The translations under genes were made by a program, and so were the position numbers. From IMG/VR virus record IMGVR_UViG_3300043395_004688: 64,000 nt of DNA; one strand, given 5' to 3'. This DNA comes from a virus. Taxonomy: Duplodnaviria; Caudoviricetes. Positions 12,600-42,798 of the stretch are shown here, one piece after another. Each line of letters opens with the position of its first letter. The stretch's first letter is position 1. The notes below the pieces were generated by a model. The model searched no databases, was not told the origin of the DNA, and saw only the letters and a program-made list of their open reading frames with translations.

Positions 12600-12623
12600 C
12601 ACTAATAACTGGAGAAATCACCA

Positions 12624-27048: not shown

Positions 27049-27275
27049 GATACTTTTCTTATAACGAATACGACCCAGATTCACCTAGAGCAGATGACAC
27101 TGGCGGCTATGTGGAAACACTATCCGAAGAAGAGATTCGCGCTAGGTACTGGCCGTATTGGTATAAGAAAATGTGTGAAAAATTTGGTCAAGAGCATGTG
27201 GACAAAAACTACTGCTTCGAAGACTGTTTAGTTGATTGGCAAGTTGTTAACTGGGCATGGGAAGTAACAAAATGA
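27045..27275 (+). CDS. Hypothetical protein
   Basis: GTGA overlap with the guaC stop. Confidence 0.6.
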
Positions 27276-27655
27276 ATCAAGAAATTCTTGGCTATGACCT
27301 TCAAGGTCAACCTATTCATAAAACACCGAAAGGATCTATTGTGACTCAGGCATTTATTCTTTGTTCAATGTGCAGGAAACCTATTAGTAATGTTGGCGGG
27401 CCAAGGCATGGTAGCGAATGTCTTGATTGTCATCCTATTCGTCAGGCATTTGAATCTGAGTGTTATCCTAATTTTAGTCCTGACTCTGCTCACGGGCTTA
27501 GGCGAAAGCCCAATGGCGAATATATTAGCAATGTATTAGAAGATCATTGGCAAACTTTTCAAGAGGGCTGGGAGCAAGCAATGAAACACTTGCAAAATAA
27601 GACCAACTCGTGCTATAGTGATATAGTCAGCACTGGCGGAATGGATCCAAGATGA
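27272..27655 (+). CDS. Hypothetical protein with a CxxC...CxxC zinc-finger-like motif
   Basis: CSMC ... CLDCH. Confidence 0.6.
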   Translation: MNQEILGYDLQGQPIHKTPKGSIVTQAFILCSMCRKPISNVGGPRHGSECLDCHPIRQAFESECYPNFSPDSAHGLRRKPNGEYISNVLEDHWQTFQEGWEQAMKHLQNKTNSCYSDIVSTGGMDPR

Positions 27656-27816
27656 GTAACTTATGGTTTAATATTCGTTTTGGTGTATACCACTGGCAGT
27701 GGGGACCTGATGGCATGACATGGCGTGAAAACCCTGCTCAGATTGAATGGCGTAGCAGAGAACCCGAAACTTGGCGTTGGTTTTGTGTTTATTGTTTATT
27801 TGGAAAACATCTATGA
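27652..27816 (+). CDS. 54-aa Trp-rich protein, not in the ORF track
   Basis: MSNLWFNIRFGVYHWQWGPDGMTWRENPAQIEWRSREPETWRWFCVYCLFGKHL; ATGA overlaps at both ends. Confidence 0.65.
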   Translation: MSNLWFNIRFGVYHWQWGPDGMTWRENPAQIEWRSREPETWRWFCVYCLFGKHL

Positions 27817-27989
27817 ACGAACGAATTAAAAATTTAACGATTGATGAAATGATTGACTGTCTGCATAATCCCACATCAGACAAGCGTAGCCTTGCTGAAC
27901 TGGATACAGTAATTGATGAAATCATTGATCGTAATCCAGAATGGGTTGAACACATCATGAGAATTGTAGAACAAGGCCAAGGAAAGTAA
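27813..27989 (+). CDS. Hypothetical protein
   Basis: ATGA overlap at 27813. Confidence 0.55.
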   Translation: MNERIKNLTIDEMIDCLHNPTSDKRSLAELDTVIDEIIDRNPEWVEHIMRIVEQGQGK

Positions 27990-27993
27990 AAGA

Positions 27994-28272
27994 ATGAATT
28001 CAATGACACGAGAAGAAGAGATCCTAACTGTTCTGCAAGAAGAATGTGCCGAAGTCAGCCAAATGGTGTGTAAGATCCGTAGGTTTGGCATTGACGAGAC
28101 TCACCTCAAGGAAGGCGGATCTAATCGCGAGCGCCTAACCGAAGAAGTAGGGGATTTACAAGCGGCGATAGATCTGTTAAAATTACACAATATAGTCAAT
28201 GAACATGATATCGAACTAGCCAAGCAACGCAAGTTTGAAAAGTTAAAAAGGTGGTCAAAAATCTATGAATGA
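27994..28272 (+). CDS. MazG-like nucleotide pyrophosphohydrolase
   Basis: LQEECAEV ... LTEEVGDL. Confidence 0.8.
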   Translation: MNSMTREEEILTVLQEECAEVSQMVCKIRRFGIDETHLKEGGSNRERLTEEVGDLQAAIDLLKLHNIVNEHDIELAKQRKFEKLKRWSKIYE

Positions 28273-29134
28273 ATTTAAAGTAAGCGAAATCTTTTACTCA
28301 GCACAAGGTGAAGGACGCTTTGTAGGTGTGCCCAGTGTGTTCTTTAGAACATTTGGTTGTAACTTCAAGTGTGCAGGATTTGGTTTGCCCAAGGGCGAAA
28401 AAACCACAGAGCCTGATGAGATTGGTAAAAGTGTTCACTTATACAAGACATTCAACGACTTGCCATTGGCCAAAGCCGGTTGCGATAGCTATGCTAGCTG
28501 GCATCCTGCCTTTAAGCATTTGAGTCCAACTTATACAGTTGATCAAAGCATTGATGCAATGCTGGCATTGACTCCCAACCATCACTGGAAGCAAAACAAC
28601 GGCAATGATGTTCATTTGGTTGTTACTGGCGGTGAACCGTTGCTGGGATGGCAACAGCTATATCCTGCACTACTGAGTCATCCTAGAATGACAGACCTCG
28701 ACAACCTGACATTTGAAACCAATGGTACTCAAATGTTGCATGACGAATTTTACGATTATCTTTTCCAGGACTGGACTAGGTTTGGTCGCGATGCTGATAA
28801 TCTTACATTTAGTGTTAGCCCTAAGCTTAGTGCCAGCGGCGAGCGTTGGGAACAAGCTATCAAGCCAGATGTAGTACAACAGTATCAAACTGTTGGGCAT
28901 GTTTATTTGAAATTTGTAATTGAAAAAATTGAAGACTTTGAAGAAGTAGATCAAGCAGTTATGGAATTTAGAGCTGGTGGCTTTGGTGGACAGGTCTATG
29001 TAATGCCCGTAGGTGGCACTGATGCCGCTTACTTTGCAAACAACAAACACATTGCTGACGAAGCTTTAGCAAGAGGTTATCGTTACAGCCCAAGATTGCA
29101 TGTGGACATTTGGAGCAACGGATGGGGCAAATGA
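28265..29134 (+). CDS. queE: 7-carboxy-7-deazaguanine synthase (radical SAM)
   Basis: SEIFYSAQGEG, RTFGCNFKC..(insert)..CDS, VVTGGEPL, FETNGT, SVSPKL, SPRLH. Confidence 0.9.
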   Translation: MNEFKVSEIFYSAQGEGRFVGVPSVFFRTFGCNFKCAGFGLPKGEKTTEPDEIGKSVHLYKTFNDLPLAKAGCDSYASWHPAFKHLSPTYTVDQSIDAMLALTPNHHWKQNNGNDVHLVVTGGEPLLGWQQLYPALLSHPRMTDLDNLTFETNGTQMLHDEFYDYLFQDWTRFGRDADNLTFSVSPKLSASGERWEQAIKPDVVQQYQTVGHVYLKFVIEKIEDFEEVDQAVMEFRAGGFGGQVYVMPVGGTDAAYFANNKHIADEALARGYRYSPRLHVDIWSNGWGK

Positions 29135-29469
29135 AAGCTCAAATTCCAGCAGTAGGAATACTCAAGCGCAGTGATTATGGCGATAGCAAATCTTATCAGA
29201 TTGTGTGCGAGTGCCATAATCCTAATCATGACCATAATGTTTGGGTAGAAGCCGAAGATACCGGAGTTACTGTTACCACCTATACAACTCAAGTAACCAA
29301 GCTCTGGGAACTAAGCAGATGGAAAACTATCTGGATTCTTTTAACCAAGGGCTATGTTGAATACCAAGCAAGTATTATTATGACTCAGCAACAGGCGCTG
29401 AATTATGCTGAAACTTTGAAATCAGCCGTTAGCGATGTAACAAACCTTCGAAAAAGTTCTAAACCTTGA
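29131..29469 (+). CDS. Hypothetical protein
   Basis: ATGA overlap with queE; CECH motif. Confidence 0.6.
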   Translation: MKAQIPAVGILKRSDYGDSKSYQIVCECHNPNHDHNVWVEAEDTGVTVTTYTTQVTKLWELSRWKTIWILLTKGYVEYQASIIMTQQQALNYAETLKSAVSDVTNLRKSSKP

Positions 29470-29480
29470 TATATACGGCT

Positions 29481-29753
29481 ATGAACACCAAAATTCAAAC
29501 ATGGACACATTCGTGCTCTACTAGTGGTACATTTGTTGTATTGCGACTAGATGAGATTTGCCCGCGATGCCTTATTAATCACCAACTCCATGCCCTCCGC
29601 CACGATGGATTTTTAGTTACTCCTGCCAGCAACCCTAAGAAATTTTTAGAAAAGAGTAAGGTTAAGCTTGCAGCTTTATTTGCTCCTAAGCAACAGATTA
29701 AAAAGAACATAGATGAAGATGAGCAAACACAGCACCTCCATAGAATCGGATAA
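29481..29753 (+). CDS. Hypothetical protein with a possible Zn ribbon
   Basis: HSC ... CPRC; preceded by gatatata-N5-ATG. Confidence 0.5.
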   Translation: MNTKIQTWTHSCSTSGTFVVLRLDEICPRCLINHQLHALRHDGFLVTPASNPKKFLEKSKVKLAALFAPKQQIKKNIDEDEQTQHLHRIG

Positions 29754-29928
29754 GCATGCCAGTGACACAAATCCGTGTCTTGGCATTTGTCAATCGGACG
29801 CAAAAGGATACTGCATAGGCTGCTATCGCACACAAGACGAAAGAGAAAAGTGGTACACTGAATCAGTCAAGTGGCGCGAGCAAACTTTAAAAGAATTGTC
29901 CTTGAGGGAGACAAGGGCCTTTGAATGA
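29713..29928 (+). CDS. DUF1289-like small Cys-rich (Fe-S-type) protein
   Basis: NPCLGICQSDAKGYCIGCYRTQDER.KW. Confidence 0.75.
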   Translation: MKMSKHSTSIESDKHASDTNPCLGICQSDAKGYCIGCYRTQDEREKWYTESVKWREQTLKELSLRETRAFE

Positions 29929-30830
29929 TAAACATTGCTCGACCTGTTAAATTATTAAATTTACTTTCGCGCGATAGCTGGATCTCTCTGCTTCAGTCTC
30001 CAAGGTTATTGCTCAACTACGAATACCACGATATTGCTTTTTTTGCATTACTGGCTTATATTAAGAAGCCCAGTAACATATTAGACCTGGGCAGCTACAC
30101 TGGCTTTTTGCCTTTTTTGGTCGAGCGGGTAACATTGCTATCCAACTCATCTCAAAGATATAATTGGACTTTGGTTGATGATTCTAGGTATCTCAGTGAA
30201 CTAAGGTCGTCTATTATTAACAATAATCCATTGAGTGGAAAAGGACTCAAAGAAGTACACAAAATAAGTTGGCTTAAAAGTAGAGTGCCTCCTACCATTG
30301 GTTCAATTTTAAACGAACATGGCGATTATTATTTGCCGCCGGTTGAACCCAACGAGTTTGCTGATTTTTGGAAAAAGTTTTCTTGGGTCGTTAGCATAGA
30401 GCAGCCCCAAATGTCTATGTACAAAACTTTAGAAAGCGTTCCTCCGGATCTAAAATTTGACTTGGTGCATTTTGATCTGGCAGCAGGCAATACAGAAAAC
30501 TCAGAAGTGTTTAACTACCTGAGACAAAACTATCTAAAGGACGACTCTATCGTTGTTTTTGATGATGTTGAAATTGCACATCCTAAAATGTTGCTGTTTT
30601 TCTTGGATGTTATAGAGCAGACTGAATACAGACCAGTTGCCATTGGAATGCAAAAAATTGCAGTAATGAACCGAGCATACAAAGATGCTTTCATTGACAT
30701 AACTAGTCAACTAGGCCTGTTGGACTTCAGTAGCGAACCTTTTAGAGATAAGTCCAATGAAGCCTACAAATTTTTCCCCGAAACAAGCAGTCGTTGGGGA
30801 CAGTATCTTAACCTAAGGGCAAAAACCTAA
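29925..30830 (+). CDS. Class I SAM-dependent methyltransferase-like protein
   Basis: ILDLGSYTG, FDLVHFD, IVVFDD. Confidence 0.65.
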   Translation: MINIARPVKLLNLLSRDSWISLLQSPRLLLNYEYHDIAFFALLAYIKKPSNILDLGSYTGFLPFLVERVTLLSNSSQRYNWTLVDDSRYLSELRSSIINNNPLSGKGLKEVHKISWLKSRVPPTIGSILNEHGDYYLPPVEPNEFADFWKKFSWVVSIEQPQMSMYKTLESVPPDLKFDLVHFDLAAGNTENSEVFNYLRQNYLKDDSIVVFDDVEIAHPKMLLFFLDVIEQTEYRPVAIGMQKIAVMNRAYKDAFIDITSQLGLLDFSSEPFRDKSNEAYKFFPETSSRWGQYLNLRAKT

Positions 30831-30831
30831 A

Positions 30832-31155
30832 ATGTTTAAATTCATAAAAAATCTATTCAATCGCAAACCTACTGCTAAGAGTATGCGAGACAATCCAGAA
30901 CCTTGGGTACAGGTTATCAAAGCTAATTTAGATCCAAGTAATCCCAAGCAAGGTTATTTTGAACTTGAATGGAACCCGGCCTTTGTGCGTCATTTAATGG
31001 ATCATGGATATCGTGGACCTACTCCCGAAGATATTGTTGATCAATGGTTCACAGAGCTGTGCCGCAATGTTGGCATGGATGGTGTTGCTGAAGGGTCGTT
31101 TGTGGCAGACGCAGGTAGAATGTCCACTAACGAAAAAACACGCAAGCAAGAGTAA
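30832..31155 (+). CDS. Hypothetical protein
   Basis: FELEWNPAFV..L...GY.G ... IVDQWF.ELC. Confidence 0.6.
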   Translation: MFKFIKNLFNRKPTAKSMRDNPEPWVQVIKANLDPSNPKQGYFELEWNPAFVRHLMDHGYRGPTPEDIVDQWFTELCRNVGMDGVAEGSFVADAGRMSTNEKTRKQE

Positions 31156-31157
31156 AC

Positions 31158-31859
31158 ATGCAGGATCGTAAAAAGCTAATCTATGGCAAAGGTTGGTTGT
31201 TAAAAAAATCTTATATCAAAGACTCTTTGATTGATATATTTTACGATCGCATAGATCGATTAGGACCGCGGCGAGCCATTGACATCAATAAAAACTACGC
31301 CGAAGGTGCTGGAATACTTGATTTAGGCAAGCTGGCTATTTGGTGGAGTCAACAGGTTCTAGACTGGCCTGAATTTCAAAGCATTGAAAAAATAACATTT
31401 GACCTAGTTCGTAGTATTTTACTAGATCCAAGACTGTATGCGGCTGATGTTGTGACCATTGAACCTGGTAGCAACATTATAAATCCTCATGTAGATACTC
31501 CGCATCGTTTTCCAGAATGGAATTTTGATCAGCGACTATTGGCACTACAGTTGATCATTCCTTTGCACGACATTGACAGCAAGTCAGGCAGCACTGGATT
31601 GGTTGATCAAAGCCAGCTTGAAAATTATCCCATTGACGATTGCTACCAAGGCAAATATAATCAAAGCTTTTTGGATCTAGTCAAGCAACCAAAAATGCCC
31701 AAAGGATCTGTGCTGTGCTATAACGCAAGGCTCTTGCATTCAAGTATGCCCAATCCAAGTACTCGACCTAGAAAAGCATTGCTGATCCACTATTGCGAAT
31801 CCAGTATCATTAAAGCTCTTCGGTCCATTGATAACATTTGGTCATCATTGGTGCCTTAA
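31158..31859 (+). CDS. Phytanoyl-CoA dioxygenase (PhyH)-family Fe(II)/2OG oxygenase
   Basis: PHVD (HxD), IIPLHD....GST, GSVLCYNARLLHSS..N....PRKALL. Confidence 0.85.
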   Translation: MQDRKKLIYGKGWLLKKSYIKDSLIDIFYDRIDRLGPRRAIDINKNYAEGAGILDLGKLAIWWSQQVLDWPEFQSIEKITFDLVRSILLDPRLYAADVVTIEPGSNIINPHVDTPHRFPEWNFDQRLLALQLIIPLHDIDSKSGSTGLVDQSQLENYPIDDCYQGKYNQSFLDLVKQPKMPKGSVLCYNARLLHSSMPNPSTRPRKALLIHYCESSIIKALRSIDNIWSSLVP

Positions 31860-31876
31860 AAAACTAGAACACAGAA

Positions 31877-32638
31877 ATGACTTTAAAAGTAATAGGGGTA
31901 TACTCTAGTAACTCTAGACTGGATCGTAACAAAGTTCTACAAGACACTACTATAAACAAAGAAATTTATAGTGGGAATGAGTGGCGGGAGGATACACCTG
32001 TTACAGATACACATCAACTTTCTAGTGCTACGCGATTATCAAGACTTACTGAAATAACCAAGCAACTGCTGTCTACACCTATTACAAAATTACCACAAGA
32101 CTATATTATACTTTCACCTGGCGGTGTACATGGTGATAAACATTTCGCATCACCGGAACGAGCAAAAAGAGATGGCATTTCATATATACGACAACGAGTT
32201 AATCAAGTAAACATCTTTGCCAAAGAAGAGCTTGATCGACTTAATAAAAAAATTAATACCAGTGTACAGGGCGGGGCACTAGGCGAAAACATATTGACAG
32301 AAGGATTTGATATTGACTCGTTGCCGCTGAATACAATATTAAAAATTGGAAATGAAGTAACATTACGAGTCTCGGCACGCCGATCATTTTGTGCTAAATT
32401 CATTGGGGCATTTTATAGAAAGGATTACTTTACAAAAAATGATCACGATAAATTTGACAAAGAGAGGACAGGTCTTGCTACACAAGTAATAACAGGTGGT
32501 ATTGTTAAAGTAGGCGACTTGATAGAAATTATCATGCCAGCCACACATGTACCGCTTACAATAAAAGGAGCCATGGTAAAATTTGAATTGCACAATCCAA
32601 ATGATCCGACTTCTCCGCCAATCCCGGACCTAAAGTAG
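31877..32638 (+). CDS. MOSC-domain protein (YiiM-like)
   Basis: GVHGDKH, GALGENILTEG, LKIGNEV.LRVSARRSFCAKF, GIVKVGD.IEI. Confidence 0.75.
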   Translation: MTLKVIGVYSSNSRLDRNKVLQDTTINKEIYSGNEWREDTPVTDTHQLSSATRLSRLTEITKQLLSTPITKLPQDYIILSPGGVHGDKHFASPERAKRDGISYIRQRVNQVNIFAKEELDRLNKKINTSVQGGALGENILTEGFDIDSLPLNTILKIGNEVTLRVSARRSFCAKFIGAFYRKDYFTKNDHDKFDKERTGLATQVITGGIVKVGDLIEIIMPATHVPLTIKGAMVKFELHNPNDPTSPPIPDLK

Positions 32639-32641
32639 GTC

Positions 32642-32670
32642 TTGACAACTCAACCCTTTAATGTTATACT
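32642..32670 (+). promoter_or_regulatory. Sigma70-type promoter giving a leaderless RNase H transcript
   Basis: TTGACA-17-TATACT with TG extension; ATG 6 nt later; no SD. Confidence 0.85.
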
Positions 32671-32676
32671 ATTCAC

Positions 32677-33660
32677 ATGAGCTACTTACTTGTTGATGCC
32701 GCAAATCTTTTCTTCCGTGCTCGTCATGTGATCCGTAATGGTGATCCTGAAGAGCGTGTAGCTATGAGCTACCACATTATTCTTGCCGCAGTCCTTAAAC
32801 AATGGCGCGATAGGCAGGGCAAGCATGTGGTATTCTGCTTTGAAGGTCGTAGCTGGCGTAAGGATCACTATGCTCCTTATAAGGCGCAGAGAGCAGATGC
32901 TCGAGCCAAACATACTGTCAAAGAAGCCGAAGAAGAAAAGCTTTTTTGGGAAAGCTTTGACAAGTTCTACGAGTACATTAGCACCAAGACCAATGTGACA
33001 GTTCTTCGCAACGCAGTTTGCGAAGCTGACGACTTTATTGCTCGTTGGATTCACTTGCACCCGAATGACAATCATATTATTGTTTCTAGCGACAGCGACT
33101 TCGAACAACTCATTGCACCCAATGTGCAACTGTACAACGGCATCGCTGGTGTGCTGACCACACACGAAGGCTACTACGACGACAAGGGCCGTGCTGTAGT
33201 TGACAAGAAGACCAAGGAAGTCAAGCCAGCGCCAGATCCTGAGTGGCTGCTTTTTGAAAAATGTATGCGCGGTGATACCAGCGATAACATCTTTAGTGCG
33301 TACCCTGGTGTTCGTGAAAAAGGTTCTAAAAACAAGGTTGGTCTTAGAGAAGCCTTTGCTGATAGAAACAACAAAGGATTCATGTGGAACAATCTCATGC
33401 TACAGCGTTGGACCGACCACGAAGGAGTCGAACACCTGGTGCGAGATGATTACGAACGAAATCGTGCTATCATTGACCTAACTGCACAACCTGACAATAT
33501 TAAGGCAGTATTAGACGAAACAATTGCCCAAGCAGTTCAGCGTGAGCGAGTACCAAACGTAGGTACCCATTTTATGAAGTTCTGTGGTAAGTATGGATTA
33601 CAAAAGGCTTCTGAAAATGCTCAATATCATTCTGATTGGATGGCGTCATCGTATAACTAA
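32677..33660 (+). CDS. rnh: T4-type RNase H / 5'-3' exonuclease (FEN family)
   Basis: LLVDAANL, SWRKDHYAPYKAQR, CEADDFIA, VSSDSDFEQL, GDTSDNI. Confidence 0.9.
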   Translation: MSYLLVDAANLFFRARHVIRNGDPEERVAMSYHIILAAVLKQWRDRQGKHVVFCFEGRSWRKDHYAPYKAQRADARAKHTVKEAEEEKLFWESFDKFYEYISTKTNVTVLRNAVCEADDFIARWIHLHPNDNHIIVSSDSDFEQLIAPNVQLYNGIAGVLTTHEGYYDDKGRAVVDKKTKEVKPAPDPEWLLFEKCMRGDTSDNIFSAYPGVREKGSKNKVGLREAFADRNNKGFMWNNLMLQRWTDHEGVEHLVRDDYERNRAIIDLTAQPDNIKAVLDETIAQAVQRERVPNVGTHFMKFCGKYGLQKASENAQYHSDWMASSYN

Positions 33661-33979
33661 AATTTTTATTTTTTGCGGATTAGCTGGGCTGGCCGTATGG
33701 GCACTCCCTGCAATCGCACAAGCCTTCTTGCTCAGAACAAATTGGGTATGTAGTAATACTCAAACAGTTGTTGAGGCTCTCAAAGAAGCCAATGAATCAG
33801 TTAGAGCAATCGGCAAGTCACAGACTAGCGATAACGAATCCATAATTATGTCGATTTGGGTTGCTAAAGACGGCAGTTGGAGTATCATTGCCACTAGTCA
33901 AAAAGATCCTAGCGTAAGCTGTGTTGTGATCACTGGCGACGGATTTACTAGATATAACTTATCCAAAGATTCCATTTAA
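33617..33979 (+). CDS. Hypothetical exported protein (start uncertain)
   Basis: Hydrophobic signal-like segment ending AQA; two Cys. Confidence 0.45.
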   Translation: MLNIILIGWRHRITKIFIFCGLAGLAVWALPAIAQAFLLRTNWVCSNTQTVVEALKEANESVRAIGKSQTSDNESIIMSIWVAKDGSWSIIATSQKDPSVSCVVITGDGFTRYNLSKDSI

Positions 33980-34004
33980 GCCCTGTTTAATAGGTTCATT
34001 ATAT

Positions 34005-34029
34005 ATGCACTTTTGCTAAATAAGTGCAT
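34005..34029 (+). promoter_or_regulatory. Late-type promoter GCTAAATA (34015-34022) inside an 8-bp inverted repeat that overlaps the ATG
   Basis: atgcactt-ttgctaaat-aagtgcat; ATG 34028 is 5 nt after the motif. Confidence 0.7.
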
Positions 34030-34339
34030 GAGTAGACCTAAGCCAACCATTATCCTAACACATACTAATCCAAGAACTTATAAGAGCGAAGAAGTTCTTG
34101 CGGCTGATGCGATCTATGCGGTTTTCTACAAAGATAAGCCTATTAACCTACGAACATTAAACAGCCTAGTTAGCTATCCTGGGCCAAAATACAAAAAAGT
34201 AAGCTTTAGCAATCCAGGACACGCATTTAACCTTGCAGATCGTTTGAACAAAATGTTTAAGGTAAACGATTTTTCTGTAGTTGAACTCAAGCAAGGAAGG
34301 CGCATCAATGAAGCAGGAACTAGCTACAAAGATAGTTGA
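34028..34339 (+). CDS. Hypothetical basic protein
   Basis: MSRPKP..., YPGPKYKKVSFSNPGHAFNLA.RLN..F. Confidence 0.7.
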   Translation: MSRPKPTIILTHTNPRTYKSEEVLAADAIYAVFYKDKPINLRTLNSLVSYPGPKYKKVSFSNPGHAFNLADRLNKMFKVNDFSVVELKQGRRINEAGTSYKDS

Positions 34340-34691
34340 GTACCTAGCTCAATATCCGCTTCCGCATATTTGGGGTAACACAAAAATAACCCCATATTCC
34401 GTTTTTAAAAATTATCAACCAGGGCGCCAAAAAGGACTAAGACTAACAACATTTGGTTGGGAGCTGATGAAGCCTCACTTTCGTTATTGGTCTTACAAAT
34501 GTCCAGCTGGATGGTCACCTAAACCCGGTCACTTGGTTGGATTAGAACAACACCTAGATTGGCCATATTATCACGGTGCTGGTTATTTTCGCATATTTGG
34601 TGAAAACGATGCCATGGAAATTCGCTTAGTAAACGACGACCTTGTATTATGGCTTGACGGTCTAAGTCGCAAAGCTCTTAACAATCGTTGA
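34308..34691 (+). CDS. Hypothetical protein
   Basis: AAGGAAGG RBS; GLRLT.FG and WPYY motifs. Confidence 0.6.
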   Translation: MKQELATKIVEYLAQYPLPHIWGNTKITPYSVFKNYQPGRQKGLRLTTFGWELMKPHFRYWSYKCPAGWSPKPGHLVGLEQHLDWPYYHGAGYFRIFGENDAMEIRLVNDDLVLWLDGLSRKALNNR

Positions 34692-34724
34692 TAACCAAGA
34701 TAGCATAAGCTGTACAATTAATCA

Positions 34725-34760
34725 TTGACCACAGAACAATTATGTACTATGTTCTGTGGT
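34725..34760 (+). promoter_or_regulatory. Probable sigma70 promoter inside a perfect 11-bp inverted repeat abutting the speD ATG
   Basis: TTGACC-17-TATGTT; accacagaaca (34728-34738) pairs with tgttctgtggt (34750-34760). Confidence 0.65.
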
Positions 34761-35153
34761 ATGAAGAAAACACAACTCATTGACCACTTTGTTACCAAAG
34801 ATGGCAAAACCTTTGCTGGCACTCATGTAATTCTAGACCTTTGGAATTGCGCTGGCTTAGATGATGAAGAACTAATTGATCGCGCTCTAAGGCAAAGTGT
34901 AAAGGCAGCTAAGGCTACCTTGTTACATATACACCTGCACAAATTTCAACCCAATGGCGGGATTTCAGGTGTTGCTGTTCTAGCTGAATCACACATGTCC
35001 ATCCACACATGGCCTGAACGCGGTTATGCTGCCTTAGATATTTTCATGTGCGGATCCGCCGATCCTTTGTTGACTGTTCCTGTGCTTGAAAAGCATTTTA
35101 AGCCTTCCAAGGTTGTACAGGAAAAATGGTATAGAGGCATGGTCTACGACTAA
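34761..35153 (+). CDS. speD: S-adenosylmethionine decarboxylase proenzyme (pyruvoyl-dependent)
   Basis: GTHVILDLW, FQPNGGISGVAVLAESHMSIHTWPE (ES cleavage site), LDIFMCG. Confidence 0.9.
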   Translation: MKKTQLIDHFVTKDGKTFAGTHVILDLWNCAGLDDEELIDRALRQSVKAAKATLLHIHLHKFQPNGGISGVAVLAESHMSIHTWPERGYAALDIFMCGSADPLLTVPVLEKHFKPSKVVQEKWYRGMVYD

Positions 35154-35190
35154 CCCGCCCTTGCGGTAACTTCTCAAACCACACCTGTTT

Positions 35191-35198
35191 TATAAATA
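35191..35198 (+). promoter_or_regulatory. T4-type late promoter TATAAATA, 5 nt before ATG 35204
   Basis: tataaata-ctttt-ATG. Confidence 0.75.
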
Positions 35199-35203
35199 CT
35201 TTT

Positions 35204-35638
35204 ATGAAGCACTGGCAACCTTATGTGCGGGCCAGCTGGGAACTAGTGGTAGAAGCACAAGGCACTACTCAGACTTATCTAGAGTCTGATGTTGAAGCAT
35301 TCTTGGTACATGTAATGGCCCGCAGTTTTGAGCGCACAGACTTTTGGTCTGTGCCGATTGCTATAAAAATGCTTGAGGCTAGATCCTTACCAAACAATCA
35401 AAAACAACCAGTGCTTAGATCAGTGGGCGAAGAATGTCTGTTCATTGATGCATGGGAGTTTAAGAAACCTCGTTGGCCTGGAGAAGCCTATTTTAAGCAG
35501 ATGGGCAGTATTGCATTTGGCATTGCTAGCGTGGCTACTAGGCCACCAGATGAGCTACTGGACATGGCAAGCTCGCAGTTCAACACCATGAGCCAAGTGC
35601 TCAGGGGCGTAAGGGACCTATATTTGTCTAAAAATTAA
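35204..35638 (+). CDS. Hypothetical protein
   Basis: 144-aa helical ORF; GEECLFI motif. Confidence 0.65.
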   Translation: MKHWQPYVRASWELVVEAQGTTQTYLESDVEAFLVHVMARSFERTDFWSVPIAIKMLEARSLPNNQKQPVLRSVGEECLFIDAWEFKKPRWPGEAYFKQMGSIAFGIASVATRPPDELLDMASSQFNTMSQVLRGVRDLYLSKN

Positions 35639-35652
35639 GCAAAACAAGGGGT

Positions 35653-35789
35653 TAGCTAAGTCATTGATTTTTAACACTTTTTTAGCCCTAGCTAAGTCAT
35701 TGATTTTAAAGAACTTTTAAAAGTGTTGCAAAAATGCCACATTTTTGAGCCAAAAAAAGTGAAAAAAAAGTGAAAAAAGAGGGGAAAAA
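35653..35789. repeat. Two 19-bp direct repeats, a 9-bp inverted repeat and four phased A-tracts
   Basis: tagctaagtcattgatttt at 35653-35671 and 35689-35707; aacactttt (35673-35681) / aaaagtgtt (35719-35727); A-tracts start at 35752, 35762, 35773 and 35785. Confidence 0.85.
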
Positions 35790-35792
35790 CGG

Positions 35793-35821
35793 TTGACTCA
35801 GTCCTAGGGTTCCCGTATACT
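35793..35821 (+). promoter_or_regulatory. Sigma70-type early promoter 1
   Basis: TTGACT-17-TATACT with A-tract UP region. Confidence 0.85.
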
Positions 35822-35830
35822 ATAAAAACT

Positions 35831-35998
35831 ATGAAACGGATCACATCAATCACTGTAAAGCTTCCGCGCCAAAAGCGCCGTTGTGTGGAACTTTACTCCG
35901 CAGATACGCCCTTTAAGGGCCGCATTGAGCGGAGCAAGGTTGCGTACAAGCGCCATGCTCGGACGCAAAAAGAGGTTGACAAGGATCTGGATCTTTAG
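35831..35998 (+). CDS. 55-aa basic protein with a weak ArfA-like pattern, not in the ORF track
   Basis: MKRITSITVKLPRQKRRCVELYSADTPFKGRIERSKVAYKRHARTQKEVDKDLDL; ATG 9 nt after the -10 box. Confidence 0.6.
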   Translation: MKRITSITVKLPRQKRRCVELYSADTPFKGRIERSKVAYKRHARTQKEVDKDLDL

Positions 35999-36004
35999 TA
36001 AACT
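35976..36004 (+). promoter_or_regulatory. Sigma70-type early promoter 2
   Basis: TTGACA-17-TAAACT; 9-bp hairpin at 36012-36032; AGGAG RBS. Confidence 0.8.
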
Positions 36005-36055
36005 AGGTACTGTGGTAGGATGGTCCTACCGCAAATCACACACAGGAGTGTTCGC

Positions 36056-36433
36056 ATGTCTAAGATTCTTTCTCAAACCCCCGACGCCATCCGCAAGCGT
36101 GAGGCTCGTGCTCGTGCTCGCGCCGCTGGTGTAATGGAGCTCACTGTTGCCGCGCCGGTGGCACCGGTTGTTGCGCCTGCTGTAGTTGCCGCGGCCGTTG
36201 CTGAAGTTGCCGCTGGCGAGACTTTTGCGTTTGTTGGCTATGCCATTGACGCCAAGGGTCGTGGTGCTGTTCGCTACACCAACGACAAGCGTCGGACTCG
36301 TACGCTGGTCCGTGCTGGTTGCACCGCTGTTAAGTTTGTCGAGCTGCCTGAGCCAATGACCAAGGAGCAGATTGATGCTTCTGAGTTTATTGCTCAGGTA
36401 AAGCCTGCCGACTCTGTTAGCCAGGCGGCTTAA
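36056..36433 (+). CDS. Hypothetical protein with basic/Ala-rich N-terminus
   Basis: AGGAG RBS; AIRKREARARARAAG, Ala/Val/Pro linker, globular C-terminus. Confidence 0.7.
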   Translation: MSKILSQTPDAIRKREARARARAAGVMELTVAAPVAPVVAPAVVAAAVAEVAAGETFAFVGYAIDAKGRGAVRYTNDKRRTRTLVRAGCTAVKFVELPEPMTKEQIDASEFIAQVKPADSVSQAA

Positions 36434-36450
36434 TTAGGAAGGGGTAGGGG

Positions 36451-36479
36451 TTGACACTCCTACCCTACCCTGCTATACT
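36451..36479 (+). promoter_or_regulatory. Sigma70-type early promoter 3; -35 at the tip of an inverted repeat
   Basis: TTGACA-17-TATACT; gggtagg (36442-36448) pairs with cctaccc (36459-36465). Confidence 0.85.
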
Positions 36480-36511
36480 AGAAACATCATTAACGCCCTG
36501 AAGGAGCCACC

Positions 36512-37609
36512 ATGGGAAATCAAGTAGAAACCCGCACCGTTAAGATCAGCGAGTGCAAGCCTATTCTGCGCCGTGCAGTAGCCAAGCGCCGACCAATTTT
36601 TATCTGGGGTCCTCCGGGTGTTGGTAAGAGCGATATGGTGAATCAAGTTGCCAGCGAGTTTCCTAACTCGACTGTGATTGACTTGCGTATGGCACTCATG
36701 GACCCTACTGACATCAAGGGTGTGCCTTATTATAGTGCTGGTGACAATACTATGAAGTGGGCTACTCCTAGCGAGCTGCCTACCGCAGAAGTTGCCGCTG
36801 AACACGATGTTGTGTTCCTATTCCTCGACGAGCTTAACTCTGCTCCTCCTGCTGTTCAGGCCGCGGCTTATCAGCTGGTGCTCAACCGCAAGGTTGGTCA
36901 GTACACCTTGCCCAACAATGTAGTGATCATTGCCGCAGGTAACCGCATGGGCGATAAGGGTGTTACCTATCGCATGCCTAGCCCACTGGCCAACCGTTTC
37001 CTGCATTTGGAAATTCGTGTAGACTTTGAGGACTGGGAGCAGTGGGCTTTGCACCACGAGATCCATCCGCATGTGGTGGGCTTTTTGAAGCAGTTCAAGG
37101 GTGATCTTTATAACTTTGATCCTACCCAGCACGACCGTGCGTTCGCTACTCCGCGTACCTGGAGTTTTGTGAGTGACATGTTGGATGACGACATGCCCGA
37201 CAGCGCCAACACCGACATGGTGGCTGGACTAGTTGGTGAAGGTATGGCCATTAAGTTTATGGCTCATCGTAAGCATGCCGCTGACTTGCCTGATCCTGCA
37301 GATGTGCTGAGTGGTAAAGTTACCACTTTCAAGAGCAAGGAAGTGTCTGCGGGTTATGCACTGGTTACTAGCCTCTGCTACGAACTTCGTAGCCGCTACG
37401 ATGATGGCAAGAGGACTGGCAAGCTGGACGACTTCAACAAGAGTGCTGATAACTGGCTGGGCTTTATGATGAGTAACTTTGAACCCGAAATGGTTATCAT
37501 GGGTGCTCACACCGTGCTGAAGAATTATAAGGTTGTGTTTGATCGCAAGAAGATGACCAACTTCCCCGAGTTCTTCAAGCGGTATGCCAACCTGCTCACT
37601 GACGAGTAA
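36512..37609 (+). CDS. MoxR/dynein-related AAA+ ATPase
   Basis: Walker A GPPGVGKS, Walker B FLFLDELN, AAGNR, PSPLANRF, TPRTW. Confidence 0.92.
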   Translation: MGNQVETRTVKISECKPILRRAVAKRRPIFIWGPPGVGKSDMVNQVASEFPNSTVIDLRMALMDPTDIKGVPYYSAGDNTMKWATPSELPTAEVAAEHDVVFLFLDELNSAPPAVQAAAYQLVLNRKVGQYTLPNNVVIIAAGNRMGDKGVTYRMPSPLANRFLHLEIRVDFEDWEQWALHHEIHPHVVGFLKQFKGDLYNFDPTQHDRAFATPRTWSFVSDMLDDDMPDSANTDMVAGLVGEGMAIKFMAHRKHAADLPDPADVLSGKVTTFKSKEVSAGYALVTSLCYELRSRYDDGKRTGKLDDFNKSADNWLGFMMSNFEPEMVIMGAHTVLKNYKVVFDRKKMTNFPEFFKRYANLLTDE

Positions 37610-37613
37610 TAGG

Positions 37614-37931
37614 GTGAGGAACTGGGCTGTACTTGAAATAATGTATGGCCCAGAAGCCCGGCAGATATGGACGGACCAACCACCAACCCCCTCTGATGTT
37701 AGCGAGTGGCTCCGCGAACAAAGGAAAGGTTGGTCCGTCCGCCCATACCCAATTGGAGCCACAATCAATGAAGTTACCAAATGGGCCAGAGAACAGGGCC
37801 TTAAACGGTTAGATTGGGACTTTGTTCCGCGTAAGAAGATATGGTTTAGAGATCCGCAGGTAGCAATGATTTGGGACTTGTGTGGTCCTAAAAATAAAGC
37901 GGTTAAAACGGTTGACCTAGAGACAGAATAG
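37614..37931 (+). CDS. Probable dispersed member of the small paralogue family
   Basis: EWLREQ, KWAREQG ... KIWFRDPQVAMIWDLCG; start GTG 37614 or ATG 37641. Confidence 0.55.
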   Translation: MRNWAVLEIMYGPEARQIWTDQPPTPSDVSEWLREQRKGWSVRPYPIGATINEVTKWAREQGLKRLDWDFVPRKKIWFRDPQVAMIWDLCGPKNKAVKTVDLETE

Positions 37932-37940
37932 CCGTATAAT
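37912..37940 (+). promoter_or_regulatory. Sigma70-type early promoter 4
   Basis: TTGACC-17-TATAAT; AAAACGGTTGAC shared with promoter 1. Confidence 0.85.
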
Positions 37941-37966
37941 AGATACATAGTTTGAAGGAGCCACAA

Positions 37967-39163
37967 ATGTCTAGAATGCCCGCCCGCGATAAGCTTATTA
38001 AGAGCCGTGTTGCAATGTTGCTGAAGTATCCGTTCTGGGGGCCTTTGGCAGCTCGGCTCAAGCTTGAAGAAGTTGATTGGTGCAAGACCATTGCCACTGA
38101 CGGCCGCAAGTTTTACTATAACAAAGAGTTTGTCGAGAAGCTCAGCGACGGCGAAATGATTTTTGGTTTTGGCCACGAGCTTGGACACATTATTTTTGAT
38201 CACATGGTCCGCCGAGGAGACCGTGAACCTCAAATTTGGAACATGGCCGGTGACTATGTTATCAATAACATGCTGGTCCGTGAAGGTGTTGGCACACCAA
38301 TCACCACTGTACCTATTCTAGTTGATCGCAAGTATGAAGGCAAGACTGCCGACGAAGTTTATGACGACTTGATGGCCAATGCCACCGTTATTAAGATGAC
38401 GCTGGATGACCACCTTGATGCTGATGGCAGTGGTGACGGTGACAGCGACAGTGACGGCGAAGGCAACGGCAAGCCCAAGTTCAAGAAGCTTACCGAAGAA
38501 GAGCGCAAGGCTCTGCGTGACGAGTGGCGCGAAGCTGTTATCCAAGCCGCAAAGAATGCTGGCGCAGGTAATACGCCGGCCGCAATTCAGCGCCTAGTTA
38601 AGGATATTACTGCGCCTGTTATGGATCTGCGTGATCTGTTGCGTATTCAGTTTAGCGGCTCTGTTAAGAGTGACTACACCTGGATGCGTCCTAACCGCAA
38701 AGGTTGGCATACTGGTGCAGTTCTTCCGGGTCAGTTGCCTGGCGAGGAACTGGACATTGTAGTGGCACTTGATGCTTCAGGTTCCATTGGTGAAGACATG
38801 CTGATGGACTTTTTGGGTATGGTACAGGGTTCGCTGGATCAATTTACCAGCTACAAGGTTCGTGTTGTTACCTTTGACACTACTGTTTACAACGAAGACG
38901 AGTTCACTGCGGAAGATGGTCGTAGCATGGGCGAATACGAAGTTACCGGTGGCGGTGGTACAAGCTTTGAATGTGTGTGGCAGTGGATGAAGGACAATGA
39001 AATCCAACCGCACCAATTGGTCATGTTCACAGACGGATATCCGTTTGGTTCGTGGGGCGATCCTGACTACTGCGACACGCTGTTTGTGGTTCATGGTAGC
39101 AAGGACATCACTGCTCCGTTTGGTATCACTGCTAACTATGTGCCTGCCAATCGCAGGCATTAA
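37967..39163 (+). CDS. Metallopeptidase-like (HExxH) plus VWA-domain protein (DUF2201-type)
   Basis: IATDG, GHELGH, WNMAGDYVIN, acidic DGDSD linker, MIDAS DASGS, GGGTSF, FTDG. Confidence 0.88.
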   Translation: MSRMPARDKLIKSRVAMLLKYPFWGPLAARLKLEEVDWCKTIATDGRKFYYNKEFVEKLSDGEMIFGFGHELGHIIFDHMVRRGDREPQIWNMAGDYVINNMLVREGVGTPITTVPILVDRKYEGKTADEVYDDLMANATVIKMTLDDHLDADGSGDGDSDSDGEGNGKPKFKKLTEEERKALRDEWREAVIQAAKNAGAGNTPAAIQRLVKDITAPVMDLRDLLRIQFSGSVKSDYTWMRPNRKGWHTGAVLPGQLPGEELDIVVALDASGSIGEDMLMDFLGMVQGSLDQFTSYKVRVVTFDTTVYNEDEFTAEDGRSMGEYEVTGGGGTSFECVWQWMKDNEIQPHQLVMFTDGYPFGSWGDPDYCDTLFVVHGSKDITAPFGITANYVPANRRH

Positions 39164-39176
39164 ACCAGAAGGACGT

Positions 39177-39387
39177 TCAGCTTAATCAGCTGATACTGTG
39201 ACCCGCAGGATGAGAAGTGGTGTGATAACCACGGGTGGTTCCAGTCTAACCTAACTGGCGCTGGCGATGCGAGAATCCTCCCTGGTTGGGAAGCGGGTGG
39301 AAGGCATGCGTGATGGTGTTGGGAGTAACCTAGCGCCTGATGTGCTACAATTACCGCCGCAGGGAGGAAGCACTTAGTTCGCTAAGT
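39177..39387 (+). ncRNA. Candidate structured non-coding RNA containing a C/D-type kink-turn; family unknown
   Basis: Four local hairpins, a 9-bp long-range stem tcctccctg/cagggagga, nested helices, GUGAUG/CUGA k-turn geometry and a terminal UUCG hairpin; folded by hand only. Confidence 0.65.
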
Positions 39388-39405
39388 AAGGTAGAGTACC
39401 TTACT
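39381..39405 (+). promoter_or_regulatory. Late-type promoter GCTAAGTA overlapping a 9-bp hairpin that abuts ATG 39406
   Basis: agtaaggta (39385-39393)-gag-taccttact (39397-39405)-ATG. Confidence 0.6.
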
Positions 39406-40263
39406 ATGATAGAACTAGAATACGCTGAGGTAACCTGGTTTTTAAATGGTTACTGCAAATTCCAATGCTCCTACTGCCCATCACTCTTTAAAAGTGGTGA
39501 GTTGAGCTTTTCAGTTGACCAGTATCTATCTGTCATTGAAAAATTGCAAAGCACAAGATACCAACACCACCCAAAAATATATTGGAAGCTAGGCGGCGGT
39601 GAACCTTTACATTATCCGCATCTGAGTACATTGTTAAAAAAAATAAAAGAACGACCATCATTTGTTAGACTTGATACCAGTGGTGACGATACTTGGTTTT
39701 CTTTGTACAGCGTTTTAAATTTCATTGACAAGGTAAAACTTACATACCATCCCTGGCAAAATGATGATGTGTTTGGCTTTGCACTTGAGCAATGCCAAGA
39801 AAAAAATATAGGGGTTTCAATTGTTATTCCTTTAACGCCCGGAAAGATTTACGAAGCCAAAGAAAAAGCACAGCACTATAAAGACCTAGGATATGTGTGC
39901 AGTGAGCAAATACTCTACGAAGAAGACGGTCGATTATATCAAGGATATAGCCAAGTAGATGAGAATAGAATTTATGGTCGCCCAGACGATTATGTTAGTG
40001 TTCCAGTGGTTCCAGTGTATACAGACCTAAGTGTACCTAATCAAGCAGATCCTGTTTACACGGGAAAGCCATGCTATGCAGGAGTAGACTGGTTGACTAT
40101 TAATCCTCGCGGCTTTGCATCATATAGTCAATGCGGTGGCAGAAGCGAACACTACAATGTATTTGATCCACAATGGCAACCACCTAGCAGTCATTTTGCT
40201 TGTACCGTAAACCAATGTAGAAACGAACAAGATCGTAGAAAAATTAGAATTGTTACCGAGTAG
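39406..40263 (+). CDS. Radical SAM protein with a Cys-containing C-terminal (twitch-like) segment
   Basis: CKFQCSYC, GGGEP, LDTSG, C-terminal CYAG..SQC...CTVNQC. Confidence 0.88.
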   Translation: MIELEYAEVTWFLNGYCKFQCSYCPSLFKSGELSFSVDQYLSVIEKLQSTRYQHHPKIYWKLGGGEPLHYPHLSTLLKKIKERPSFVRLDTSGDDTWFSLYSVLNFIDKVKLTYHPWQNDDVFGFALEQCQEKNIGVSIVIPLTPGKIYEAKEKAQHYKDLGYVCSEQILYEEDGRLYQGYSQVDENRIYGRPDDYVSVPVVPVYTDLSVPNQADPVYTGKPCYAGVDWLTINPRGFASYSQCGGRSEHYNVFDPQWQPPSSHFACTVNQCRNEQDRRKIRIVTE

Positions 40264-40290
40264 AAACGCACCGCAAGGTGCGTTTTTTTT
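40264..40290 (+). terminator. Rho-independent terminator
   Basis: aaacgcacc-GCAA-ggtgcgttt followed by a T run, immediately after the stop codon. Confidence 0.92.
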
Positions 40291-40325
40291 GATTCCATTT
40301 TGGTTAAACCTTTGCAAAATTGGCT

Positions 40326-40333
40326 AATAAGTA
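40326..40333 (+). promoter_or_regulatory. Late-type promoter variant AATAAGTA (leadered)
   Basis: Downstream of the terminator and upstream of AGGAG + ATG 40368. Confidence 0.45.
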
Positions 40334-40367
40334 TTTCGTGGGTATACCATAACAATAGGAGATAAAC

Positions 40368-40607
40368 ATGGAAAACCAAGAACAGGCACAACAGCCAATT
40401 TCGCTCAATTTACAAGACCTTCGCGTACTAGCCGGTGCAGTAGAACTCGGCGCTACACGCGGTGCCTATCGTGCCAATGAAATGGAAATTGTTGGTGCTA
40501 CTTACAACAAGTTAGCATTATTTCTAAAGGCCAATACACCAGCAGAGCAGCCGGCTGAAGCAGGCGCACCTGCAGAAGTTACCGACGCACCTCAAGAAGC
40601 TGCTTAA
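40368..40607 (+). CDS. Small acidic hypothetical protein
   Basis: AGGAG RBS; GAYRANEMEIVG.TYNKL; P/A/E tail. Confidence 0.7.
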   Translation: MENQEQAQQPISLNLQDLRVLAGAVELGATRGAYRANEMEIVGATYNKLALFLKANTPAEQPAEAGAPAEVTDAPQEAA

Positions 40608-40624
40608 ACTAAAAGGAGCCTTAT

Positions 40625-41248
40625 ATGGCAAAATTTATTAAACATGTTGGACAAAATTTACAAGGCAAAAAGGTTGTAGTTTTGTTTCGCGAAGTACCCG
40701 GAGAGCCCGAGAACTGCCTGGTAGTTCATACAGAAAAGCTACCAGCTAGCTATCACGACGATCTTATGCGAGCTGTTGAAAGTAATATTTGCCAGGATCA
40801 ACTTGACACTCATGACTTTCTTTTTAGACAGTCATTCCAGGACGGTACCAATATGCTAAACACCTTGCATCAGCAAGGTTGGATTGTCAAGGTGCCTACC
40901 AAGAGCATTCTTATGCGACCAACTCCCGGCGTTGAAATTAACCTAGTTGATCTCAATAAGGAACTCAAGCAAATTACAAATCAAGAAGCTGTACAGGGAA
41001 TTAAACGAGCACCTGTAGCAGCGGCTGCGCCAAGCACACCACCCGGCGTAATCAGCGACGAGCAATTGGCTGCTAAGTATCGTTCTCAGGCCAATACCTT
41101 TGAAGCTGAAGTACGCAGGTTGAGAGAAGAGGCAAACAAGCTTGACCCAAAAAGCGTGGTCGCGGGCGACCACCAAAGTCCAGCCCAGCCGGCGACCGAA
41201 GCCAAGAGAGGAAGGGGCCGGCCAGCCAAGGTTCAAGTCGTAAGTTAA
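40625..41248 (+). CDS. Hypothetical protein with a C-terminal AT-hook-like motif
   Basis: AAGGAG RBS; KRGRGRPAK near the C-terminus after a coiled/low-complexity region. Confidence 0.7.
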   Translation: MAKFIKHVGQNLQGKKVVVLFREVPGEPENCLVVHTEKLPASYHDDLMRAVESNICQDQLDTHDFLFRQSFQDGTNMLNTLHQQGWIVKVPTKSILMRPTPGVEINLVDLNKELKQITNQEAVQGIKRAPVAAAAPSTPPGVISDEQLAAKYRSQANTFEAEVRRLREEANKLDPKSVVAGDHQSPAQPATEAKRGRGRPAKVQVVS

Positions 41249-42752: not shown

Positions 42753-42757
42753 GCTAG

Positions 42758-42798
42758 TACTTAGCAAGCAAATTTAATCATATAATGCCTAATAAATA
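42758..42798. promoter_or_regulatory. Back-to-back late-type promoters
   Basis: Minus strand gctaagta-ctagc-ATG (42765 to 42750); plus strand aataaata-aaac-ATG (42791 to 42805). Confidence 0.6.

Follow-up and report, generated by a model that had tools for sequence, protein, structure and literature searches.

The inverted repeat at positions 34005-34030 of the 64,000-nucleotide (nt) stretch of DNA analysed here (the window) is very probably a conserved, T4-like translational mask, in which the promoter of a gene, orf103, lies within a hairpin that would cover the start codon in longer transcripts, while the late mRNA made from that promoter is predicted to be leaderless. The window corresponds, in reverse complement, to G000:C1:106106-170105, part of a single virus record (G000) of 177,701 bp and 42.7% G+C, whose completeness was estimated by CheckV at ~53%. 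This phage is an uncultured freshwater jumbo phage, far from T4. Megablast against named phages revealed no close DNA relative of the window, near-identical DNA is present in freshwater metagenomes, the identity of its family-B DNA polymerase to the Phosso, Atu_ph07, Rak2 and GAP32 enzymes is 41-47%, and the AAA ATPase is 50% identical to its PA5oct counterpart. The first-pass annotation had described five perfect inverted repeats spanning promoters at gene starts, numbered here as sites 1 (8831-8855), 2 (34005-34029, the focal one), 3 (34728-34760), 4 (39385-39405) and 5 (42752-42766). Four of them are perfect at these coordinates, and the fifth pairs over 5 bp only. Comparisons were made with the relatives L001, L002, L076 and L078 (87-91% identical across 26586-40886), with L156 (~86% identical across 4814-13144) and with the whole sequence of G001 (the same as L158), a 285-kb contig that is ~70-75% identical.

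The gene behind the focal hairpin, orf103 (34028-34339, + strand), encodes a conserved protein of 103 amino acids (aa) with the N-terminus MSRPKP... The arms of the hairpin (+ strand), ATGCACTT and AAGTGCAT, form 8 bp around a 9-nt loop, and the predicted T4-type late promoter core, TAAATA (34017-34022, + strand), stands 5 nt before the ATG at 34028, the A of which is the predicted +1. The A and T of the start codon are included in the 3' arm. When 49-nt segments were folded and compared with 200 dinucleotide shuffles each, this site taken singly appeared marginal, with a minimum free energy (MFE) of -10.7 kcal/mol, a z value of -1.7 and 10 of the 200 shuffles as stable. We also calculated the opening energy of the ribosome footprint (-14 to +5), both in read-through RNA and in the RNA made from the gene's own promoter. 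By this footprint measure the opening would cost 14.3 kcal/mol in the former versus 0.5 kcal/mol in the latter, a difference of 13.8 kcal/mol; about 5% of promoterless controls reach 10 kcal/mol, and 26% reach 6.

The evidence that carries this interpretation comes mainly from the orf103 family, of which at least 600 loci were found in IMG/VR. Homologues also occur in PA5oct, Atu_ph07, Phosso and SCTP-2, and the protein shares 92% aa identity with that of G001; searches with it returned neither a Pfam nor a PHROG match, and its confident AlphaFold model (pLDDT 86.6) matched no PDB entry at E 0.001 or better. The sequence gATAAATA lies 5-42 nt upstream of nearly all orf103 homologues. For 80 distinct upstream regions, we compared each gene's own segment 5' of the predicted +1 with segments swapped between members, a control that we preferred over a null fixing the promoter and the 5-nt spacer, since the latter hid arms located in that segment. 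The extra opening energy in read-through RNA was 5.7 kcal/mol with the own segment versus 2.3 kcal/mol with swapped ones, and values of at least 6 kcal/mol were reached by 47% versus 8% (Wilcoxon P 4e-11). The difference held for a wider ribosome footprint (6.4 versus 2.6, P 1e-12) and among 14 dissimilar representatives (6.05 versus 2.5, P 0.003). At least six pairs straddle the predicted +1 in 64 of the 80 regions.

The helices of this family differ in sequence, as illustrated by the pairs CTGCTCAT / ATGAGCAG, GTGTATCTCT / GGGAGATACAC, ATGCGTA / TACGCAT and AAGAGTA / TACTCTT, and a crude clustering sorts the 5' arms into 25 classes. Often the promoter occupies the loop and the 3' arm contains a Shine-Dalgarno motif or the ATG, and some relatives are significant individually (L265, z -3.1; L276, z -3.9; L287, z -5.2). 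In many homologues the 5' arm lies entirely upstream of the promoter motif, so that the gene's own transcript would lack the helix even if the start site were slightly misplaced. Closer to the window, the intergenic region of site 2 is identical in four close relatives, and its closest variants (L260, L262, L263 and L261) contain one compensatory C-G to G-C swap and one transition that preserves a G-U pair. We tentatively propose that a large clade of mostly uncultured jumbo phages, with PA5oct-, Atu_ph07- and Phosso-like phages among them, restricts orf103 to late translation by means of a hairpin around a gp55-type late promoter, that the arms of this hairpin were exchanged many times with the masking preserved, and that in the lineage of the phage studied here the mRNA would be leaderless and the start codon itself masked.

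More generally, we regard it as somewhat probable that a subset of genes in this phage lineage uses the principle known from T4 genes e, soc, 49 and I-TevI. A 5' arm located upstream of the gene's promoter, or overlapping it, would pair with the start codon, with the Shine-Dalgarno motif or with the 15 nt before the AUG. Read-through transcripts coming from upstream promoters would carry both arms and be translationally masked, while transcripts from the internal promoter would lack the 5' arm and be translated. The internal promoter would often lie 5-7 nt before the ATG and be either TAA(A/G)TA, used with a gp55-like sigma factor, or of the sigma70 type; at that distance the productive mRNA is predicted to be leaderless, and the start codon with its flanks would make up the 3' arm. 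What was observed are the repeats, how stable and how enriched they are, and their turnover in relatives, in which complementarity is retained; from these features we infer the start sites, the read-through and the translational effect.

Read-through across the focal region appears plausible, given that no + strand intrinsic terminator was found between 31500 and 40262; the only convincing one between 31500 and 43500 lies at 40262-40287. The genes upstream share this strand, and a sigma70-type promoter is predicted at 32642, from which transcripts could cross sites 2 and 3, a further hairpin at the ATG at 35204 described below, and site 4. The T4-type logic invoked in the first-pass annotation is retained in part: it agrees with the geometry of the sites, with the gp55-like sigma factor, with the lack of a terminator between 31500 and 40262 and with the orf103 family, and it found no support at sites 1 and 5 or in the family of site 4.

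The leaderless part of the proposal draws on the promoters themselves. The pattern TAA(A/G)TA-N5-ATG (TAARTA-N5-ATG) occurs 17 times in G000, versus 0-6 times at other spacings; 15 of the 17 instances open a reading frame of at least 50 aa, and the base preceding the ATG is T in 12. G001 shows a comparable spike, with 31 occurrences at N5 and 10 at N4, and by our own count motif and spacing are kept at ~14 orthologous genes though the letters of the spacer change. In both genomes a pyrimidine, mostly T, precedes the ATG. Many strong sigma70-type promoters (TTGACA-17-TAnnnT) likewise lie 5-9 nt before an ATG and are also conserved in G001, and the one close to the ATG of the peptidase gene of site 1 is kept in L156 and L162. 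These genes thus have a -10-type element at a fixed short distance before the ATG and no Shine-Dalgarno motif, the arrangement expected of leaderless genes. If initiation follows T4, in which transcripts begin 6-7 nt after TATAAATA, the +1 at TAARTA-N5-ATG genes would be the A of the ATG, and the pattern implies systematic production of leaderless late mRNAs from putative T4-type late promoters. The leaderless arrangement suggested by the first-pass annotation is thus strongly supported at the sequence level. A candidate for the factor involved is the 330-aa product of G000:C1:91671-92663, outside the window, which matches phrog_12791 (3e-87) and phrog_234, the T4 gp55 type (1e-25), as well as T4 gp55 itself (E 6e-6); judged from these matches, the phage encodes a gp55-like late sigma factor, and a sigma70-type promoter is predicted upstream of its gene.

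Two further observations concern these promoters. The arrangement TAAATA-one base-ATG is found at four places in the record (7180-7193 and three others), each before an open reading frame (ORF) of at least 50 aa, as with gtgTAAATAgATG at 7191. These instances do not fit the N5 rule, and the motif in them probably overlaps the preceding gene's stop codon. Separately, RNA-library contigs from two runs begin at 35844/35845, ~16 nt past the predicted +1 of TTGACT-17-TATACT (window 35793-35845), and another begins at 40347, ~8 nt past the predicted +1 of TAAGTA at 40328-40333. These contig starts lend weak support to the natural use of the respective promoters.

How far the repeats as a set exceed chance was evaluated on 202 called starts, using 200 rounds of dinucleotide shuffling of the upstream 45 nt. 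Perfect repeats of at least 8 bp whose 3' arm ends between -4 and +5 of the ATG were observed five times versus 0.64 expected, with none of the 200 shuffles reaching five, and those of at least 9 bp three times versus 0.165. The fifth repeat of at least 8 bp lies outside the window, at a head-tail adaptor gene. The whole record contains 115 such repeats versus ~53 under Markov simulation, and the long ones are mostly terminators; the real repeat density predicts ~1.3 per 10-nt bin at starts, which gives an estimated Poisson P of ~0.01, and a histogram of repeat positions around starts shows no sharp peak at the ATG relative to the neighbouring bins. The set of repeats is modestly beyond chance, and sites 1 and 5 individually are not. 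With two of five sites no better than chance, counts of perfect repeats at starts overstate the case.

Masking was also assessed through occlusion of the start codon. The segment from -40 to +9 of each start was folded, and a start was scored when z was below -2 and the start codon was mostly paired; promoter-bearing starts were those with a promoter motif within 45 nt. Significant start-occluding hairpins were found at 12 of 68 promoter-bearing versus 4 of 134 promoterless starts in G000 (Fisher P 5e-4), and at 11 of 124 versus 5 of 231 in G001 (P 0.006). Promoter-bearing starts also exceeded pseudo-start controls in the extra opening energy in read-through RNA, in G000 as in G001 (P 3e-5 to 0.03), with only 9-14% of these starts reaching 6 kcal/mol. 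The masking hairpin is an occasional device, present at ~9-18% of promoter-proximal starts, that is, at about one gene in 6-10.

Outside the window, two hairpins are the best single examples in the record. At the endolysin gene (G000:C1:16659-17324, phrog_894; region to 17355), TAAATA lies in the loop of a 10-bp stem (z -3.35) whose 3' arm holds the Shine-Dalgarno motif, and in G001 pairing is kept through two compensatory double changes along with a 10-nt loop insertion. A 13-bp stem (z -7.7) is found at the head-tail adaptor gene (G000:C1:59699-60454), and its pairing is kept in G001 via two wobble-preserving transitions. Covariation of the arms, proposed in the first-pass annotation as a check, is accordingly seen in the orf103 family and at these two hairpins, is mixed in the closest variants of site 2, does not extend to site 1, and is not significant in the families of the radical SAM gene and orf144, which follow sites 4 and 6.

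The remaining sites of the window differ widely in how well they agree with masking. At site 3 (+ strand), the arms ACCACAGAACA and TGTTCTGTGGT pair over 11 bp around a sigma70-type promoter, TTGACC(34725)-17-TATGTT(34753), and the helix ends 1 nt before the ATG at 34761 of the S-adenosylmethionine decarboxylase gene speD (34761-35153). The fold is stable (-17.4 kcal/mol, z -4.45, none of 200 shuffles as stable), with a footprint opening difference of 16.8 kcal/mol. Nine of the 11 bp are kept in four relatives of 87-91% identity, the version of L001 being still significant with a z of -2.4; in these relatives the outer two pairs were lost by a deletion and a substitution, which also cut the distance from the -10 element to the ATG from 7 to 6 nt. 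The gene is absent from G001 and the locus is common only to close relatives (87-91% nt identity), while distant speD homologues retrieved by scans mostly matched the window only in the conserved speD coding stretch. Masking at 34728-34760 is plausible. In this case late transcripts from 34017 would cross the sigma70-type promoter, and translation would be confined to speD's own, presumably early, transcript.

A sixth site (35186-35211, + strand) precedes orf144. It is an 11-bp stem with two G-U pairs, whose 5' arm overlaps TATAAATA (35191-35198) and whose 3' arm includes the ATG at 35204 and the following codons. It folds with -9.4 kcal/mol (z -3.6, none of 200 shuffles as stable), and its footprint opening difference is 8.0 kcal/mol. 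G001 has a different 7-bp stem at this place, CTGCATA / TATGCAG, which again includes its own ATG, and masking at 35186-35211 also appears plausible.

Masking at site 4 (+ strand) is weak, sporadic among relatives and uncertain. Its arms, AGTAAGGTA and TACCTTACT, pair over 9 bp, overlap TAAGTA (39383-39388) and adjoin the ATG at 39406 of a radical SAM gene; the fold is marginal (z -1.65, 16 of 200 shuffles as stable). The window copy is the only one with a 12-nt leader (predicted +1 at ~39394, in the loop, with no Shine-Dalgarno motif) instead of N5. Among its relatives, L345 and L002 carry a different 8-bp repeat, TCATATGT / ACATATGA, and L342 a third one, ATGCGTT / AACGCAT, both around TAAATA-N5-ATG and both with z ~-3. 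Radical SAM lineages with an intrinsic terminator just upstream, including G001, have no such hairpin.

At site 1 (+ strand), the arms CATACACA and TGTGTATG pair over 8 bp with TATAAT in the loop, and the ATG at 8853 forms the final 3 nt of the right arm; a consensus promoter, TTGACA(8819)-17-TATAAT(8847), precedes this ATG, which opens an SprT-like metallopeptidase gene. The fold is unremarkable (z -0.6, 52 of 200 shuffles equally stable). In L156 the -35 and -10 elements, the sequence 'tgtgt' and the ATG are kept while the left arm is replaced (MFE -4.7 kcal/mol, z +0.6), and this retention of the promoter with loss of the arm counts against a function for the repeat. L157 and L158 have no such promoter directly before the peptidase ATG, and more distant homologues have a leadered promoter, none, or a leaderless promoter without a repeat. 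The 8831-8855 repeat is probably fortuitous. The TGA stop codon of a small ORF at 8780-8824 (peptide end ...EEAMLFRLMCS) falls within this promoter's -35 hexamer, TTGACA; the end of the peptide (E[ED]AMLF[RK]L) and the overlap with the -35 are kept in L156, and the ORF is too short or weak for the gene caller. Site 5 (- strand) comprises TGCTA / TAGCA at TAAGTA-N5-ATG (ATG 42752) of a fatty-acid-hydroxylase-like gene identified by a Pfam match. With a z of +0.46 and no equivalent in the G001 orthologue, it is best treated as a chance repeat.

Compared across sites, the start codon lies within the 3' arm at 34005-34029, 35186-35211 and 8831-8855, the helix stops 1 nt short of the ATG, inside the ribosome footprint, at 34728-34760 and 39385-39405, and a masking helix is present only weakly (5 bp) at 42752-42766. 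Given standard spacing, each of the five numbered sites would have its predicted +1 either in the loop or within the 3' arm, as the first-pass annotation had stated, these start sites being predicted ones. Footprint values at 8831-8855 (7.1 kcal/mol), 42752-42766 (7.3) and 39385-39405 (6.0) fall inside the control range.

Several observations weigh against the masking interpretation. Some bins inside genes show a repeat density similar to that at starts, and perfect repeats at starts are unenriched in G001 (one observed versus 1.2 expected). Between 82% and 91% of promoter-proximal starts lack such a hairpin, and the mean start-codon pairing of leaderless genes is the same as in shuffles (0.47-0.51 versus 0.48-0.50). 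With hairpins at only ~9-18% of promoter-proximal starts, and significant start-occluding ones at only 12 of 68 promoter-bearing starts in G000, the 'general timing system' postulated in the first-pass annotation was abandoned. Two single changes in the closest site 2 variants break pairs, one of them taking the AUG out of the stem. Own segments did not differ significantly from swapped ones in the radical SAM family (19 distinct upstream regions, 2.8 versus 2.3, P 0.19) or in the six-member orf144 family (P 0.11). Strong hairpins were expected to be rarer where an upstream terminator or divergent gene insulates the start, and this anticorrelation amounts to a trend only (0 of 7 against 22% in the phage's own genome, 21% against 18% in G001), with P 0.16 in the orf103 family. 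An internal AUG without a Shine-Dalgarno motif might be poorly translated anyway, which would make the hairpin redundant at leaderless genes. Moreover, the 202 starts of the 177.7-kb record were called by a simple heuristic of codon usage and signals, and the three public metatranscriptomes that contain parts of the region do so as assembled contigs only, with no contig over 34700-35100 in run X7.

In line with part of this evidence, most of the five repeats could be chance or neutral by-products of short, AT-rich, low-complexity promoter DNA, with its CACA/TGTG runs, CATATG and TATA-like palindromes. The z values of sites 1 and 5, the marginal ones of sites 2 and 4, the dropping of the site 1 arm by L156 with its promoter kept, the results in G001 and inside genes, and the two non-significant families would all be expected on such an explanation. 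It accounts less well for the collective excess of five versus 0.64, for the stability of site 3 and of the 35204 hairpin, for the three swap tests in the orf103 family, for the compensatory changes at the endolysin and adaptor hairpins and for the association of hairpins with promoters in two genomes, and we consider it rather unlikely overall, though the most serious of the alternatives to translational masking.

The hairpins might instead serve the upstream transcript, by protecting its 3' end, as a factor-dependent terminator or pause, or through RNase processing, their overlap with the next start resulting from tiny intergenic spaces. In this densely packed genome they do coincide with the ends of the preceding genes, they have no U-run and so are not classical terminators, and the swap test, which shows locus-specific pairing, is blind to which gene benefits. 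However, the 3' arm takes in the Shine-Dalgarno motif, the AUG or the first codons (as in L265, ATGAGCAG, and in G001, ATGCAG), which means that the arms change together with the coding sequence. The promoter is also consistently found within large loops (9-19 nt), which fits the flanking of a promoter and not a stability element, and the hairpin is absent behind a true terminator at orf103 of PA5oct and at the G001 radical SAM gene. We judge this explanation improbable. A plain intrinsic terminator reading of the five repeats was rejected, since no U-run follows any of them and the loops measure 9-11 nt at sites 1-3; the genuine terminators of this genome have another form, such as GAAAAGGGCTC-tttg-GAGCCCTTTTC with a T-run behind it.

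Action at the DNA level, the alternative that the first-pass annotation had named, was judged very unlikely: palindromic operators for dimeric phage or host regulators, or cruciforms, would agree with the four long perfect repeats of the window, which overlap the usual operator position from -35 to +1, and perfect palindromes alone cannot separate DNA from RNA action, but the arms are unrelated between sites and share no half-site, so that a separate regulator would be needed each time, pairing is kept across the 25 arm classes of the orf103 family, G-U pairs make up 74 of its 664 predicted pairs, transitions preserve wobble pairs, and strong hairpins fold 2.8 kcal/mol more stably in sense than in antisense, versus 0.5-0.6 kcal/mol elsewhere. 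Loops of 9-19 nt between arms of 8-11 bp also make poor cruciform formers. A single operator shared by all sites was rejected outright, as one binding protein cannot explain arms that have no sequence in common.

A translational mask of this kind has a clear precedent in T4, where promoter-in-hairpin arrangements such as that of the lysozyme gene e are described in section 29 of PMC3014915. As in T4, the Shine-Dalgarno motif and/or the AUG is part of the helix, the late promoter core (TAAATA here, cf. TATAAATA) would lie inside the loop or the 5' arm, or beside one of them, and a gp55-family sigma factor is present; gene e and the endolysin gene of this phage are arranged alike. Whereas T4 late transcripts retain a leader containing a Shine-Dalgarno motif, many transcripts here are predicted to be leaderless, with the start codon forming the 3' arm. 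A sigma70-type promoter is also enclosed here (34728-34760), which would restrict translation to its own sigma70-type transcript and not to a late one, and the masking is, in contrast to T4, a prediction from sequence. What would be new is a known T4-type mechanism in a variant form, coupled to predicted leaderless mRNA.

Hairpins that hide a ribosome-binding site have also been reported for mobE of Aeromonas phage Aeh1 and other homing-endonuclease genes (cited in PMC3014915). The likeness lies in an RNA hairpin masking the translation start of a gene within a longer transcript; the genes there are mobile endonuclease genes, whereas the best case here is a widely conserved 103-aa protein. Leaderless mRNAs are familiar from lambda cI transcribed from PRM, and from phiYS40, a Thermus phage, in its middle and late genes. 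In Deinococcus-Thermus, they arise from a -10 element directly before the ORF (PMC12340547). The phage described here resembles that case in its -10-like element 5-7 nt before the ATG, the absence of a Shine-Dalgarno motif and the conserved spacing, and differs in the T4-type late motif with a gp55-like sigma factor, sometimes wrapped in a masking hairpin. The nearest cultured relative with a transcriptome is PA5oct (Arenbergviridae), which shares orf103 (58% aa identity) and relatives of the AAA ATPase and DNA polymerase. Its gATAAATA stands 31 nt before the orf103 start, an intrinsic terminator lies upstream, and a strong mask is absent. Text searches of the PA5oct paper (PMC7318152) returned only sigma70-type promoter motifs (TTGAC / TATAATA) and no instance of the words 'leaderless' or 'hairpin'.

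If confirmed, these findings would turn the T4 lysozyme-type mask from a peculiarity of T-even phages into a recurrent, evolutionarily maintained device of a distant and mostly uncultured jumbo-phage clade, one that can be combined with leaderless mRNAs from T4-type late promoters. They would also provide a sequence-readable marker of genes barred from early synthesis, singling out orf103 and the endolysin gene, and the annotation of start codons and promoters in these phages would improve because TAARTA-N5-ATG pins both. Were the proposal true, premature synthesis of the orf103 protein should be harmful, and a leaderless start plus a read-through mask would represent a distinct, reusable design for gene timing.

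Minor observations concern RNA in the window. A search of the window against Rfam gave no family match, and the metatranscriptome contigs, which are assembled, show no pile-ups of 5' ends. Upstream of the radical SAM gene lies a GC-rich stretch free of ORFs (39165-39387), which is ~97% identical in L002 while its flanks diverge; it matches the otherwise unrelated contig L234 at 73% and, likewise, no Rfam family. Depth in metatranscriptome run X7 rises to 53.6 at 39226, and at 39190 a contig ends next to Illumina adapter letters, which suggests that 39165-39387 gives rise to an abundant, short structured RNA.

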